This document shows, piece by piece, positions 30,416 through 37,392 of a stretch of DNA of 64,000 nucleotides (positions are counted from its first letter, which is position 1; every line of letters starts with the position of its first letter). The stretch comes from Syntrophales bacterium (GTDB lineage: Bacteria > Desulfobacterota > Syntrophia > Syntrophales > UBA2210): NCBI GenBank assembly GCA_963662405.2, contig CAXXKT010000001.1, positions 1,856,001-1,920,000 on the forward strand, given 5' to 3'. The position numbers were made by a program, and so were the translations under genes. The notes under the pieces are model-generated. The model did no database searches and was not told the DNA's origin. It saw nothing but the letters and a program-made list of their open reading frames with translations.

Positions 30416-31510
30416 ATGGGTTTCAGGTGCGGCATCATCGGACTTCCGAACGTCGGCAAATCCACGATCTTCAACGCCCTTACCGCCGCTGGCGCGGAGG
30501 TGGCGAACTATCCCTTCTGCACCATCAATCCCAATATCGGTATCGTTCCTGTTCCCGACCCGCGGCTTGAACATATCGCCCACATTATCCATCCCCCTGA
30601 GGTCACTTTTACGACGATGGAATTTCTCGACATTGCCGGTTTGGTAAAAGGTGCGAGTCAGGGAGAGGGGTTGGGAAATCGGTTTCTCGGAAACATTCGG
30701 GATGTCGATGCAATCGTCCATATTGTTCGCTGTTTCAATGATCCCAACGTCGCGCATGTTCATGGTGCCGTGAACCCCGCCGATGATATTACGGTTGTGG
30801 AGATGGAGTTAGTCCTCGCTGACATGGAGACCGTAGAAAGACGAATCGAGAAGGCGGAAAAAACGGCAAAGGCTGGAGACAAGTCACATCGCAGTGAACT
30901 CGAACTGTGCCACAGGATTCTCGACTCCCTAGGGGGCAATATCCCGGTGCGCAATATTGCTCTGAACCCTGAAGAAGATGTTGTGCTGCGAGAACTAAAT
31001 CTGATCACGGCAAAGAAGGTGCTGTATGTTGCGAATATTGACGAATCACAACTGCGGGAGGGGGATCAGTATATAACCGCCGTAGAAGAGATCGCGCAAT
31101 CGGAAGGATCTGAGGTGATTGTTATCTGCGGCGATATGGAGGCCGAGATCGCGGCCCTTGCCGAGGAGGACAGGAAGGCATTCCTTGATGATCTTGGTCT
31201 GGCAGAGTCGGGACTCCAGAAGCTGATCCGAGCCGGATACCATCTCTTGGGCCTGGTCACCTTTTACACAACGGTGGGGGGGCAGCTTCGTGCCTGGACG
31301 ATCCCGGACGGGACCAGGGCCTCCCGTGCCGCTGGAAAGATCCACACCGATATGGAACGGGGATTCATTCGGGCGGAGATTCTAAAGTATGATGATTTTG
31401 TCAGGGCGGGGGGCATTTCAACTGCCAAGGATCAAGGGCTTATTAAGGCGCAGGGCCGAGACCATATTATCGAGGATGGTGATATTGTTCACTTCAGATT
31501 CAACGTGTGA
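30416..31510 (+). CDS. ychF: Redox-regulated ATPase YchF
   Basis: GLPNVGKST, NYPFCTI, DIAGLVKGAS and FIRAE motifs. Confidence 0.97.
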   Translation: MGFRCGIIGLPNVGKSTIFNALTAAGAEVANYPFCTINPNIGIVPVPDPRLEHIAHIIHPPEVTFTTMEFLDIAGLVKGASQGEGLGNRFLGNIRDVDAIVHIVRCFNDPNVAHVHGAVNPADDITVVEMELVLADMETVERRIEKAEKTAKAGDKSHRSELELCHRILDSLGGNIPVRNIALNPEEDVVLRELNLITAKKVLYVANIDESQLREGDQYITAVEEIAQSEGSEVIVICGDMEAEIAALAEEDRKAFLDDLGLAESGLQKLIRAGYHLLGLVTFYTTVGGQLRAWTIPDGTRASRAAGKIHTDMERGFIRAEILKYDDFVRAGGISTAKDQGLIKAQGRDHIIEDGDIVHFRFNV

Positions 31511-31529
31511 TACAGAGAGAAAGGTACCA

Positions 31530-32441
31530 TAGTCGATTTTGAAAACCCCAACCCCTACAGGGGTCTCGTATGCCAATGCCCTTTGGCAAAGAAGGCGTTG
31601 CTGAAACAATCGGCGCAAAAAGGCGGCAGCGAACCGCTGCAGCTTCCGCAAGTTCAAATCCACAGCACTGAGAATCGCATTAATCCGGTCCCCGCTGGTC
31701 CCTGTCAGACGATTCCGATCCATGCGATGCCTTCGCTTCAAATGAGCAACACCCGGTTCGATAGCCGGTCGGGGTTGCCGCCACGGCCGTCTTCCCTCGA
31801 CACCTTTTACCCACATGAACCTGAAAAGTTCCCTCATATTCGTGACCACGGTATCCCATATCAACAAAGGCACGGGTCTGTTTCCCCTAATGGGCTCAAC
31901 CTGCGAAAGAGTATCCTGCTAACGTATGCCCGGATTCCCCCGGAGTGCCCTAGCGCCCACGGATGAGCCCCCGCGACTGGTCGCCGCCATGGGCTCGTGA
32001 ACACTGTATACCTTGTTCGTATTGGATTATGCCTTCGCCGGTACCAATAGTGCTTGAAGGTGTTGGTCCGGCCGGGGGCAGTTCCTGTCGATACCACGCA
32101 TGACATGCGCCAGATAGGTCGTCGGTTTCCTCGTACACCCTGTTGCGCTTTTCATCTGACGGGCTTGGGCAGAACGGCTCTTCTCTGACTTGCCCTCGGC
32201 TTCGATTGCCGAGTGTGGTTCTGACGCGGGGGAATGCTCCTTATCTGTGGCAGCTGTTGCCAACCATTTCCGAGGACGATCGAAGAGCCGGGTGTTGGTG
32301 GAAAAACGAATATTCTTCTCCTGCACTGTGGTATCAGCATTGGCCCGCTTGAGTGGGGGACTTCTTGATTGCCGTGAGCTTCAAGCCCGCTTCCATGGGT
32401 TAATAATGACAGGGTAATAAATCTTTCGTCAGGGACGGCCA
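31530..32441 (-). mobile_element. Degenerate IS5-family element (fragmented transposase)
   Basis: Fragments in different frames: QEKNIRF.., DMGYRGH, AIEPGVAHLK..HRMDRNRL.G..GDRINAILSA; eroded ends. Confidence 0.75.
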
Positions 32442-32461
32442 TTATAGGAAAAGACGAACAT

Positions 32462-32499
32462 AAAAAAAGGTGGCTGATTCCTTGAGACCTTCAGCCACC
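32462..32499 (-). terminator. Intrinsic terminator of the candidate sRNA
   Basis: Perfect 9-bp stem GGTGGCTGA/TCAGCCACC followed by U7 on the minus strand. Confidence 0.85.
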
Positions 32500-32560
32500 C
32501 GATATATAAACAGAGAGAACACTCAAAAGACACTCTCCGATTTATGTCTCCATCCCACAA

Positions 32561-32694
32561 TGGGGGGGGTCGGTGAGCGGAAAGGAGGGAACGTAAAACC
32601 GCCCACCGACATATAAAGCCTTTATAACAACCCCCTCTTCTATGGGGGGGGGGCCGGTGAGCGGAAAGGAGGGAACATAAAACCACTCACCGGC
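32561..32694 (-). repeat. Two ~50-nt direct repeats, each a 12-bp hairpin with an 18-nt loop and a C tract
   Basis: Hairpins at 32569-32610 and 32653-32694; plus-strand loop AAAGGAGGGAACRTAAAA. Confidence 0.92.
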
Positions 32695-32959
32695 TAAAAA
32701 ACTCAATCCTCCGAAAGATCCGAAAGGAAGAAATCCTCACTCAAAACGGCATTCTTTGATCTCTTTCCCTGAAGATCCACGAAATGATTCGAAACCGAAC
32801 CACCATCGCGCCGGACTGTACCACAATCTCTATGGGGTTTGAGAGCATCTGTACCTTTCTCTCCAGAGCCCCTCTCCAAAACCTTTTTCTTTGTCGTATC
32901 TTTCATCGAGACTCTCGCTCTTGATCCAAGGCCGTTTAAAGAACTCAGTTTGTCTGTTA

Positions 32960-32976
32960 TGCAACAACGGTGCCAA
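32960..32976 (-). promoter_or_regulatory. Sigma54 -24/-12 promoter
   Basis: TTGGCAC-CGTTG-TTGCA matches the TGGCAC-N5-TTGCA consensus. Confidence 0.88.
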
Positions 32977-33238
32977 AACTAATCTGAGTGAGAAAAAGAC
33001 CCTGAAGCAGAAATGTATTGATAAATCGAATGGTTAGAAAGTAGGCCTCAATGGGAAGGGTGTCGCAAAGATGAAAAAATGGGGAGTATTCATGACAACC
33101 TGAGGAGATGATGTTGATAACCCGTGCTCGTCCCGCACGTTAATGGTCCAACAGGGGGGATGATACCCCTAAAAACAGGGTATGTGTGCGATCTGAGAAC
33201 TATAAGTTCGAAGACCGCACTTTTTGGGGCGGTGTGAC

Positions 33239-35338
33239 CTATGAGGCATCAGTTTCCAATTTTTTGAGTTCACGTATAAGTGTGTACCGTGAAATGCTGA
33301 GTTGTCTGGCAGCTGCGGCCTTGTTGCCGCGGTTGACCTCGAGAGCTCTCCGGAGGATTTCACCTTTAATTTTGTTCGTCAATTCATCGACTGAACGCCG
33401 GTAGTCTGAGGGATAGGGGATACCGAGGACGGATAGCTCGCCGGCATGGATTTCCAATGAATGGGGCTCTGCCGCCTTGATCTCCGCCGGGATATTATCA
33501 GAGGTAATTAAATTGCTGACACTTTGGAGGATCATGATACGCTCAATGATGTTTTTCAGCTCCCTTACATTACCCGGCCAATGATAGCTTTTCAGGAGCT
33601 TTTCCGCATCGGCGGTAAAGCCCTTTACGCTCTTGTTCAATTTTGTGTTGAACTCCTCGATATAGTGATAGGCCAGAGGCATGATGTCTTCGATTCTTTC
33701 CCGGAGAGGCGGTATCACGATAGGGACAACACTAATCCGGTAGAACAGATCTTCTCGGAAGGTCCCCTCGCTCGCCATCTGGCTTAAATCCCTGTTAGTG
33801 GAGAATATAAACCTGACGTCAATGGGAATATTGTCTACGCCACCAAGCCGTCGGATGTGATTTTCTTCGAGCATTCTGAGAAACTTTGCTTGAATCGAGG
33901 GGTTCATTTCGCCGATTTCGTCCAGGAGGAACGTTCCTCCGCTTGCGTGCTCGACGAGCCCAATTTTCCTTTTCCTCGCATCGGTGAAAGCCCCGGCCTC
34001 ATAACCGAAGAGCTCACTTTCGAGCAGTGTCCCCGGTATGGCAGCGCAATTTACCTCCACAAAGGGTTTTGATTTTCTGGTGCTCTGTCGGTGAACAGCG
34101 CGTGCTATCAGTTCCTTTCCCGTTCCGCTTTCCCCCTGTACGAGTACACTGGTATCGTGCCGGGCGACATCCTTTATCATATGAAATATATCCAGCATCT
34201 TACTGGAATTACCTATAATATTATGAAAGCCCAAGAGTTTATTTTCTCTTTCTTTGAGCATCTCGACTTCCGTCTTGAGTGACTTGGCCTCACGGGAGAG
34301 TTGAGAACGCAAGATGGCGTTGTCATATGAAATAGCGGCGTTGATGATAAGGATGTCCAGGAGACTTTTCTGATCACTTGAATAGTCCCCTTGTCGCTTG
34401 CCCAGATACAGTATCCCTTTGAATTTATCTTTGATTCTCAAGGGTATGGCTATCTCAGATGGATGGCCGTCAAAGATGGGGGTGGCCCCCGACCCTTGAG
34501 GAGACAGTTGCGTGATAAGGATGTCCTCATCGAGTGCCTTCTGGATGATGCTGCGTTGTATCTTTGGATAGTATATATTGTCCTGATCCGAAAAGACCTG
34601 CTGTCCATCGCTGATTAGAAAGCTTCTCTTTTCGATGTCAAGGAAGTAGAGAAGCGCCTTCTCCGCCTCTCCGATTCTGATCGCGTTGTGTATGACGGTT
34701 TCATGGATTTTGTCCAGGTTGTACGTCGAGTTGACTTGTGACATCGCGTCTTGGAGCATCAGCAGCCTTCTGATCTTTTCTCTGTTGTCATCGAAAAGAC
34801 GGAGGTTGTGTATGACGACACTGATGTGATTCGCGAAGGTCATAAGGGTGCTGATCACTTCCCGTGGAAACGTTGTTTTCCTCTCATACCATACGGCGAT
34901 AATGCCTATCACGTCATCCTGTATCTTGAGGGGACCGCAGAATGCCGAGTATAAACCGGTCTCCCCGCCGTAGAGGCTGGTGAGTTTACGATCCGTGGGA
35001 GTGATCATGGGATCCGTCTCGGAATCTTCGAGGACGATATAATTGCCGGTCCTCGCGACCTTTGTCACGAGACAATCGTGCCGCTCGAGGTTCAGCTTGC
35101 GCGCAAAGGCCCGTTTTGCCTCCTCAGGGCTGTAATTCTTGACAACTTTGGTAACCAGATTCTTCTTTTGCTCGTCGAGGAGACAGATGACCCCCCGGTG
35201 AAACCCCATGGTGTCCACCGCTTCATCCAGGATCCTCTGGAGGGTGTCCTCAAAACTGAAGGGGGTCGTGATCAAGGCGCTCATGCGATAGAAGCACCCC
35301 AAGATCCGTTCTGTTGAGTAGAAGAAGTCAGGACTCAT
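33239..35338 (-). CDS. Sigma54 enhancer-binding protein with two GAF domains
   Basis: GAF-like N-terminus, [27 protein letters not shown] and a Fis HTH. Confidence 0.92.
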   Translation of the reverse strand: MSPDFFYSTERILGCFYRMSALITTPFSFEDTLQRILDEAVDTMGFHRGVICLLDEQKKNLVTKVVKNYSPEEAKRAFARKLNLERHDCLVTKVARTGNYIVLEDSETDPMITPTDRKLTSLYGGETGLYSAFCGPLKIQDDVIGIIAVWYERKTTFPREVISTLMTFANHISVVIHNLRLFDDNREKIRRLLMLQDAMSQVNSTYNLDKIHETVIHNAIRIGEAEKALLYFLDIEKRSFLISDGQQVFSDQDNIYYPKIQRSIIQKALDEDILITQLSPQGSGATPIFDGHPSEIAIPLRIKDKFKGILYLGKRQGDYSSDQKSLLDILIINAAISYDNAILRSQLSREAKSLKTEVEMLKERENKLLGFHNIIGNSSKMLDIFHMIKDVARHDTSVLVQGESGTGKELIARAVHRQSTRKSKPFVEVNCAAIPGTLLESELFGYEAGAFTDARKRKIGLVEHASGGTFLLDEIGEMNPSIQAKFLRMLEENHIRRLGGVDNIPIDVRFIFSTNRDLSQMASEGTFREDLFYRISVVPIVIPPLRERIEDIMPLAYHYIEEFNTKLNKSVKGFTADAEKLLKSYHWPGNVRELKNIIERIMILQSVSNLITSDNIPAEIKAAEPHSLEIHAGELSVLGIPYPSDYRRSVDELTNKIKGEILRRALEVNRGNKAAAARQLSISRYTLIRELKKLETDAS

Positions 35339-35361
35339 ACGATCTTGCCTCGGGAGAGTTA

Positions 35362-37392
35362 TTATGCCTTGTCGTACTTTAAAAACTGCATGGAAAAGGT
35401 ACCCCTTCCCTGTGTAACCGAGCGTAGGTCGGTTGAATACCCGAACATCCGTTTTAAGGGAACGCGCGCCTTGATCTCACTCACGGGATCTTTGTGGTCG
35501 ATTTGTTCCACTTCGCCATTCCTGGCATTGATGTTGCCGATGACCTCGCCCATGAACTCGCCCGGAGTGATGATATCCACCTCGACGATGGGCTCCAACA
35601 GAGTGGGTTGCGCCCGTGAGCACCCATTTGAAAAGGCTGTTGAGGCTGCTATGCGGTATCCGAGTTCCGTCGATTCCGCGTCTCTGAAAGAGCCGCCGAC
35701 TACTCGAATGACCACATCGACGACCGGATAACCGGCTATCGTCCCGCTGAGGGCCGCGTCACGGATCCCATCTTCAATAACAGCTTGAAATTCAGAAGGA
35801 ATAACATCACTTGTGGTTTCATTTATGACCACCAGACCGCTCCCCCGCTCACCGGGTTCCAGATGCAGGACCACATGGCCGAAATGCTTCTTGTCACCAA
35901 GCTTTCGTTCGAATATTTCCTCGGCCTTTGTCCCTTTTTCAATCGTTTCTCGATAGACAACCTTGGGTTTGCCGATATTGACATTGGTATGGAATTCACG
36001 GATAAGCCGGTCGATGATAATCTCAAGATGGAGCTCCCCCATCCCGGAGATGATCGTTTGAGCGGTCTCGTCATCATATTTAACGGTGAGGGTGGGGTCT
36101 TCGCTCGATAACTTCTCGAGGGCAAAGAGTAACCGCTCCTGATCCGCAGGTGTCTTCGCCTCTATCGCTTGACTGATAACCGGCTCATATGACTCGATCC
36201 GTTCGAGAATAATCGGATGGGATTCGTCGGATATGGTATCTCCCGTGGATGTATCCTTCAGACCGACCACCGCGATGATATCACCGGCCCCGGCCTCCTT
36301 GACGCGTTCCCGTTTATTGGAATGCATCTTCAAAAGTCGGGATACCTTTTCCTTGTGCCCCTTGCTTGCATTGTAGATATCCTCTCCGGCTTTGATTTTC
36401 CCGGAGTATATCCTCATGTAGGTGATCTTTCTTCCTTCTTCCAGCATTACCTTGAACGCCAGGGCCGCGAGCGGTTCCTTGATGCTGCTGCGGCGGGTTT
36501 CAATCTCCTTCGTGACGGGATTGATCCCCTCGACAGGGGGAATGTCTTCAGGGGAAGGAAGAAAATGAATGATGGAATCGAGAACCGGCTGGACCCCCTT
36601 GTTACGCAGGGCCGTACCGCAGAGTACCGGAACCACCTGGAGCGAGAGGGTTGCATTCCTGATTGATTCCAAGGTTTCGTTCTCGGTAATTTCGGTTCCC
36701 TCAAGGTATTTTTCAGCGATGACGTCGTCGATCTCCGCCAGTGTCTCGATCATTTTTTCACGATGTTTTTCGGTTTCGGTAAGCATGTCCGAAGGGATGT
36801 CGAAGGTATCATATGACTGCCCCAGGGTGTCTTCGTCCCAGGTGATCAACCGCTGTCCGATAAGATCGATTACTCCCTGAAAAGTATCGTTTTGTGTATA
36901 CGGTATCTGGATCGGGAGGGGTATTGAGGTGAACCGCTCATTCATCGTTCGCATTGTGCCCCAGTAGTCCGCACCCACTCGATCCATCTTGTTGATGAAT
37001 GCTATCTTGGGGACGTGATACTTGTCGGCTTGGCGCCAGACCGTTTCAGATTGTGGTTCTACCCCTCCGACGGCGCAGAATACGACCAACACCCCGTCCA
37101 AAACCCGGAGGGATCGCTCCACCTCCATCGTAAAATCCACGTGACCGGGGGTGTCGATGATATGTATCTCCTGGCCCTTCCAGAGACAGGTCGTAACCGC
37201 GGAGGTGATGGTGATCCCTCGCTCCTGCTCTTGTGCCATCCAGTCCATGACCGCCTCACCATCATGGACCTCGCCGATCTTATGGGTCCTGCCGGTATAA
37301 TAGAGGATCCTTTCCGTTACAGTAGTTTTCCCCGCATCTATGTGCGCGATGATTCCTATATTTCTTGTTTTTGAAAGTCGTCCGGAGGCCAT
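35362..37392 (-). CDS. fusA: Elongation factor G paralogue
   Basis: [22 protein letters not shown] and NKMD motifs; outside the str operon. Confidence 0.92.

Follow-up and report, generated by a model that had tools for sequence, protein, structure and literature searches.

C-rich loops occur in several regulatory RNAs, such as RsaE/RoxS, LhrC and sX13, and dual-function RNAs that pair with mRNAs while encoding a peptide include SgrS/SgrT. The layout closest to the one reported here is that of the cuckoo RNAs CcsR1-4 of Rhodobacter sphaeroides with the small protein CcaF1, described as a small ORF followed by anti-Shine-Dalgarno (anti-SD) hairpins in the 3'UTR and a single terminator, under an alternative sigma factor and with a variable number of hairpins (PMC8034643; PMC4615179); one of them, RSs0680a, is reported to be bound by Hfq (PMC4615179). 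Pxr of Myxococcus xanthus is described as an sRNA that folds into stem-loops, exists in a long and a short form and has paralogues; its gene, with an apparent sigma54 promoter of its own, lies directly downstream of the sigma54-dependent activator gene nla19 (PxrR) (PMC5568312). The 6C RNA of Actinobacteria is reported to pair with several mRNAs through its C-rich hairpin loops independently of RNA chaperones (PMC6486639), and in SR1/SR1P of Bacillus one transcript serves as both a base-pairing RNA and the message for a conserved peptide (PMC3526287).

The locus studied here lies on the minus strand of a 64,000-nt stretch of a Syntrophales genome (the window, taken as a whole). It shares with cuckoo/CcsR the order of a small ORF, repeated anti-SD hairpins and one terminator, but the likeness is one of architecture only. 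The cuckoo loop motif CCUCCUCCC occurs in none of the 92 distinct hairpin units collected here and nowhere in the transcript, the core being CCCUCCUUU instead; the stems of cuckoo/CcsR are variable, whereas those described here are conserved; and the RpoH promoter of cuckoo/CcsR contrasts with a sigma54 promoter served by a dedicated GAF-type enhancer-binding protein. Furthermore, the CIN1 subgroup of cuckoo loci encodes DUF1127, whereas the peptide of our locus matches neither DUF1127 nor any other Pfam family, and RSs0680a is Hfq-bound, whereas the order hosting our cassette appears to lack Hfq (0/61 genomes). The Rfam model ar14 (RF02344) did not match the locus; its best hit in the genome lay elsewhere and scored 25.1 bits against a gathering threshold of 58.8 bits. 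The cassette is best seen as a counterpart of cuckoo/CcsR with sigma54 control, a host apparently lacking Hfq and a probable dual function, but by loop motif, Rfam, DUF1127 and promoter it is not a member.

Pxr and the cassette are alike in that an RNA stands behind a sigma54 activator and has its own sigma54 promoter. However, Pxr is a non-coding RNA of about 108 nt that folds into three stem-loops and follows a response regulator, whereas the predicted transcript of the cassette spans 488 nt, includes a conserved ORF and follows a GAF-GAF activator. A search for sequence or structure homology to Pxr gave no Rfam match at the locus; Rfam presumably contains a Pxr model. The 6C RNA carries its C-runs in two loops and belongs to high-GC Gram-positive hosts, whereas here the C-runs lie 3' of the stems and the host is of another phylum; the loop sequence is also different, Rfam gave no match, and sigma54 control and the attached ORF are particular to the cassette. 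An exposed anti-SD seed in a chaperone-less host is the situation described for 6C RNA. No sequence relation to SR1/SR1P or SgrS/SgrT was seen, and the peptide here has no known family and is dropped by some members. We rejected three further classes. A Csr-type sponge was discarded because GGA, the feature of CsrB/RsmY/RsmZ, is not enriched (13 occurrences versus 14.1 +/- 2.6 in 500 shuffles); the loops are CU-rich. CrcZ and CrcY are sigma54 sponges with repeated AANAANAA motifs in hosts that have Hfq, and this type was set aside because the transcript holds a single AANAANAA motif and Hfq was found in 0/61 genomes. Type I toxin-antitoxin systems pair a small hydrophobic toxin with an antisense RNA, and were excluded because the peptides consist of 46% E/S/K/D and the RNA module lies on the strand of the ORF.

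The original prediction of a consensus sigma54 promoter and of a terminator with seven U residues closing the unit was borne out for both elements. The promoter has a perfect -24/-12 site at 32975-32960 (minus), is one of only six strict matches to TGGCAC-N5-TTGCW across the 3.8-Mb genome, which encodes RpoN, and recurs at the same place in relatives. With standard spacing, transcription would start at 32949, and the predicted unit (32949-32462, minus) is 488 nt long. It ends in an intrinsic terminator at 32500-32462, with a 9-10-bp stem (32500-32469) and U7 (32468-32462), which a simple terminator scan did not report because its loop exceeds the 8 nt that the scan accepts. The proposed direction of transcription agrees with promoter, terminator and G-U covariation in the stems (see below) but not with the folding energies: the whole transcript folds with z = -1.76 on the minus strand (6/100 shuffles equally good) and with z = -3.06 on the plus strand (0/100). 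Since folding shows no preference for the minus strand, the strand call rests on the other three features, and a minus-strand transcript is predicted from them. Positions 31500-35500 were matched without a single difference by contigs of two runs; both runs belong to one sample, from which the DNA may have come.

Upstream of the promoter lies a gene for a 699-aa protein (33239..35338, minus) with Pfam GAF, Sigma54_activat and HTH_8 matches in the order GAF-GAF-AAA+-HTH, which is presumably the cognate activator of the adjoining promoter. An orthologue of its GAF region was found in 123/151 genomes of the order, and activator and hairpins tend to occur together (both in 113 genomes, hairpin only in 4, activator only in 10, neither in 24). 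Three palindromes of the form NGT[GT]C-N7-G[AC]ACN, at 33205..33221, 33185..33201 and 33123..33139, are predicted upstream activating sequences (UAS) to which the activator would bind. At least two such palindromes are present in 42/47 loci with the promoter in view, and in this genome they accompany only 2/48 relaxed sigma54 sites: the promoter at 32975-32960 and a site at C1:799133(-). There, the same layout of three palindromes and a sigma54 site heads a CoA-transferase operon (PF01144), which continues with genes for a paralogous pair of periplasmic binding proteins; 10/11 loci of this operon retain both the sigma54 site and the UAS. A 13/14-nt complement to the hairpin loop in the operon leader was rejected as a target, as it was not seen in the 10 orthologous leaders inspected. 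By eye, a stretch resembling the IS remnant that lies beyond the terminator of our locus (see below) is found near C1:801948, upstream of the CoA-transferase promoter. One-mismatch matches to an IHF site were seen in 18/47 spacers, a count without chance control. A gap of 24 nt separates the end of a gene for an EF-G-family GTPase (35362-37392, minus) from the activator gene, which has the same orientation, and this suggests that the two may be co-transcribed.

The transcript contains the two predicted hairpins, at 32694-32653 and 32610-32569 (minus), each with a 12-bp stem and an 18-nt loop and each followed by a C-run (32653-32644 and 32569-32562). They are spaced 84 nt apart within a 56-nt repeat of 86% identity, and the exact 17-nt direct repeat that they contain was matched in 0/300 dinucleotide shuffles of 31800-33700. 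As originally described, the stems differ by a compensatory change from C-G to U-A and each contains one G-U pair on the minus strand. A linker hairpin with GAGAG/CUCUC arms and a UUUAUAUAU tract (32538-32502) separate them from the terminator, and, judged by eye and without a count, most 3' modules of the family that we inspected share this combination. In the folded full transcript, the loops are unpaired with a probability of 0.76-1.0, and the 9-mer CCUCCUUUC is common to the genome's own 16S tail and the loop plus its closing base. The loop had been proposed to complement an SD sequence together with a start codon. The first part stands: the core CCCUCCUUU is present in 89/92 distinct units, a figure inflated by the choice of units with loop-containing patterns and by the relatedness of the genomes. 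The second was rejected, because UA(U/C)GUUCCC occurs in only 11/92; we read the start-codon complementarity at this locus as a local coincidence outside the family seed, which by conservation is CCCUCCUUU only. A third hairpin copy in the genome was found with a covariance model and had been missed by a loose genome-wide hairpin scan. Separately, a dispersed identical repeat in nine places (including C1:25631, C1:1518270 and C2:378258) resembles the loop at three mismatches and is probably the ribosome-binding site (RBS) and start of a multicopy gene, an IS.

Across 33 units from 20 loci, 395/396 stem cells pair (99.7%), compared with 35-57% in slid controls; 14 cells in two pairs are changed on both sides, which 0/500 shuffles reach, and G-U pairs account for 35 cells when the promoter strand is read, each of which would become A-C on the opposite strand. 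These figures overstate the case, because the units are related and were selected by a pattern spanning part of the loop and arm. The covariance model matches 117/151 genomes of the order, whereas in a sample of the phylum it matched 4/151, all four within the order and thus 0/146 outside it. A DNA search with a 561-bp region matched 42/61 related genomes, and when 185,579 species genomes were scanned with an exact pattern, 53 loci were returned, 49 of which carry the labels Syntrophaceae, Syntrophales, Syntrophus, Syntrophobacterales or Deltaproteobacteria; judging from the record titles, the host order would be Syntrophales. Two loci with the whole cassette are labelled Pseudomonadota and Solibacteraceae (L022 and L055), possibly through mislabelling, mis-binning or transfer. 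Two others (L029 and L056), having neither promoter nor activator, were treated as chance matches; they are excluded from the 92 units of the loop count and included among the 62 loci of the ORF count given below. In one genus (g4; L018/L019/L062/L065/L085) the hairpins are kept, in L018/L019 as two copies about 305 nt apart, the GAF activator was not found in the two genomes tested (2/2) and no sigma54/UAS layout was seen, a possible case of regulatory rewiring. Rfam gave nothing near threshold at the locus or in nine homologous loci; with relaxed E-values it returned sub-threshold hits only, three in the window region and four in the nine loci. In the literature covered, to which subscription journals contributed little, we found no regulatory RNA of this kind in Syntrophales. 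Thus, the suggestion of a sigma54-driven RNA with anti-SD loops from an unrecognised family was upheld: the loops are conserved and exposed, and the family is real, order-wide, order-specific and apparently uncatalogued.

We propose that the GAF-GAF protein would sense a small molecule, bind the three palindromes and turn on the adjoining sigma54 promoter, as architecture and co-occurrence suggest. The transcript of about 488 nt would have two functions, its 5' half encoding a disordered mini-protein, whose acidic-FFL motif, computed to be under purifying selection, probably docks on a partner protein, and its 3' half forming a structured RNA. In the latter, one to three GC-rich hairpins, whose structure the covariation supports, hold out CCCUCCUUU as a single-stranded seed; the 16S rRNA tail carries an identical run. 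Most likely this seed needs neither Hfq nor ProQ and pairs with the strong AAAGGAGG(G) RBSs of several mRNAs. Pairing would block initiation, so that repression would be exerted in trans, by the full transcript or by a 3'-processed RNA. To this reading, a chaperone-free, multi-target, RBS-blocking RNA that may act like cuckoo/CcsR without belonging to it, we assign a probability of about 0.6. Hfq was not found in any of 61 genomes of the order, nor ProQ in the one genome searched; CsrA and two RNase E/G-family proteins are encoded in the genome.

Since a loop with an anti-SD sequence is bound to match many RBSs, complementarity is weak evidence when taken by itself. AAAGGAGG is present in 72/3417 start regions, 21 of them with AAAGGAGGG, and with this many candidate sites a multi-target mode is likely; the start regions were delimited with a crude ORF caller, which placed a number of starts wrongly, that of a cold-shock gene for example. 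Ranking the 3417 start regions by loop-only duplexes gave no clear outlier, and folding duplexes with the full hairpin at no opening cost yielded an uninformative ranking. The best single candidate in this genome would be a tandem-USP gene (309 aa, PF00582, C1:422848), whose RBS (C1:422823-422850, plus) complements the loop and whole 3' arm of hairpin 1 at 21/22 nt and could invade the stem too. It is the only match with at most three mismatches outside the hairpins in the genome, and its net cofold energy is -23.9 kcal/mol versus -13.1 kcal/mol for the runner-up among the 3417 start regions, in a calculation that cannot model loop-only kissing and hence undervalues ordinary targets. The strict 16-nt extended complement occurs in 1/151 genomes, and orthologous USP start regions have the same layout with 9-16 of the 22 nt matched (13/15 loci parsed). 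We have rejected order-wide target pairing into the 3' arm on the ground of the single strict match and kept it as a local lead; the USP match, which is lineage-specific, could stem from recent selection or the recent gain of a target, or else have been copied from the hairpin by DNA conversion. Among the 50/62 GGAAAGGAGGG start sites of the family that were fetched, no order-wide target emerged. The recurrent genes were aldehyde:ferredoxin oxidoreductase (5), what we take to be a cold-shock protein (3), Hsp20 (2), a rubrerythrin-like protein (2), USP (2) and a 97-aa unknown protein (2), and may simply be genes with strong RBSs.

That no conserved mRNA target was found would also be expected if the hairpins were docking sites, that is a decoy or sponge, for an RNA-binding or ribosome-associated protein, with mRNA pairing incidental. 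Stem sequence is conserved beyond the needs of pairing, 6/12 pairs being invariant among the 33 units, which hints at protein recognition; a C-run follows 71/92 units (a U-run 18/92), and the copy number of one to three per locus is like that of sponge RNAs. However, a loop core that is a single-stranded anti-SD run and the near-perfect complement to the USP RBS in this genome speak for pairing, and the obvious clients fail, as GGA is not enriched for CsrA and there appears to be no Hfq to sponge (0/61). We consider such a decoy unlikely, while granting it some weight.

The transcript had been described as about 490 nt without a convincing gene, which proved incorrect. It contains an ORF (32906-32703, minus) for a hydrophilic 67-aa mini-protein with a C-terminal acidic-FFL-S-D motif, and relatives have counterparts at the same place, conserved in frame and motif and with the stop codon just 5' of hairpin 1. 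Of 62 distinct loci, 41 have an ORF bearing an FF-hydrophobic (FFx) motif, and where the promoter is 250-450 nt upstream the proportion is 35/37; one of the two exceptions, L022, does show an FFx-type ORF in a separate inspection, whereas the other, L068, shows none. The motif, acidic-F-F-L-S/P-D/E, is present in one or two copies with synonymous codons freely used, the stop codons of the motif ORFs vary (TGA 16, TAA 13, TAG 12), and pN/pS, uncorrected and from non-independent sequence pairs, is 0.14 over the ten motif codons versus 0.64 elsewhere (14 family-level sequences). The conserved protein is about 60-75 aa long. No Pfam or NCBIfam family rose above noise for 41 peptides; a profile search across 1.84 billion proteins returned 47 representatives, including P0044, a repeat that looks unrelated, a word-index search returned one relative, and an Atlas peptide search gave no usable match. 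The ORF has at best a weak RBS, none being clear. From conservation and selection, the ORF is predicted to be a gene, and ORF and hairpins are both conserved. Thus, the prediction of a sigma54-dependent sRNA stands as regards a conserved, exposed anti-SD RNA and falls as regards a purely non-coding one; in this genome the transcript is best read as a dual-function or 3'UTR-type RNA.

The position of the stop codon just ahead of hairpin 1 and the selection on the ORF would also suit a cis-acting 3'UTR element for the stability, decay or translation of the mini-protein or USP mRNA, the protein being the effector. In some relatives a USP gene is indeed part of the same transcript, inserted ahead of the ORF (L008, by Pfam Usp; L015-L017, by alignment). 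However, a stabilising hairpin needs no invariant loop, and promoter, hairpin and terminator are retained at loci that lack the ORF: in L058/L096, L089 and L098 the loop follows the promoter at a distance of 64-79 nt, and in L026 at about 177 nt; as such versions exist, the RNA module is a unit in its own right. Furthermore, the third hairpin copy of this genome (C1:961062-961120, minus) has the same linker and terminator module and follows a gene pair for a PAS-kinase and an NtrC-type activator (domains read from sequence), and the FFL peptide was not seen there. This paralogue has a leader of about 450 nt, with similar blocks in L028, L044 and L054, and a variant promoter, TGGCAYGATTYRTGAA, in which A replaces the -12 C, stands behind the NtrC-type regulator in 5/7 loci. 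In many relatives the terminator itself is a further copy of the anti-SD hairpin. ORF-less loci, loop-bearing terminators and reuse of the module behind an NtrC-type activator together argue that selection acts on the loop whether or not the peptide is present, and we regard a solely cis-acting role as distinctly unlikely. Nor is the module likely to be the leader (5'-UTR) of a downstream gene, since the longest downstream ORF is convergent in 44/55 loci that have one, mostly ychF. In most relatives ychF directly abuts the terminator; here, an IS remnant (31418-32400, weak DDE_Tnp_1_6) lies between the two.

A DNA-level repeat (REP-like or a mobile-element end) or a chance structure is highly improbable: although the IS remnant 600-1000 nt downstream (DDE_Tnp_1_6, below cut-off) and the capacity of single-stranded DNA hairpins for G-T wobbles could be counted in its favour, the genome has only three copies, the place behind one activator is fixed order-wide, the orientation relative to promoter and terminator is strict, and the stems covary.

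A chaperone-free RBS-blocking RNA remains our preferred reading, and the mini-protein may be tied to it through the activator. By eye, the N-terminus of the activator, PDFFYS (35338-35315, minus), resembles EDFFLS of the mini-protein; such N-termini occur in this family and one other, and other families are without them. A modelled peptide-activator complex scored 0.50, against 0.00 for the best of three controls, with at least 39% contact agreement between runs and a partner pLDDT of at least 40. Of 157 solved pairs 116 attain the mark for such scores, as do 2 of 215 mismatched pairs, and among those scored at most 0.60 there are 18 solved pairs and both mismatches; binding is a weak lead, of a kind that at such a score is more often wrong than right. 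A full feedback circuit, in which the mini-protein would bind the activator via its acidic-FFL motif while the 16S-mimic loops throttle strongly translated mRNAs without a chaperone, the proposed targets being those for USP, Hsp20, cold-shock protein and aldehyde:ferredoxin oxidoreductase in energy-limited syntrophs, is a speculative extension that we think improbable as a whole.

As members of methanogenic consortia, Syntrophales break down fatty acids, aromatic compounds and alkanes. The regulon in hand comprises an activator, an enhancer motif, a sigma54 promoter, a CoA-transferase operon, a mini-protein and a paralogue. If the proposed mechanism is true, the cassette would offer a clean model of chaperone-free anti-SD regulation in a Gram-negative lineage without Hfq. 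It would parallel the design of cuckoo/CcsR independently and bring in a new family of small proteins that carry a short linear motif. The UAS, the seed, the USP target and the FFL motif would then provide handles on the control of translation in syntrophs living close to the thermodynamic limit.
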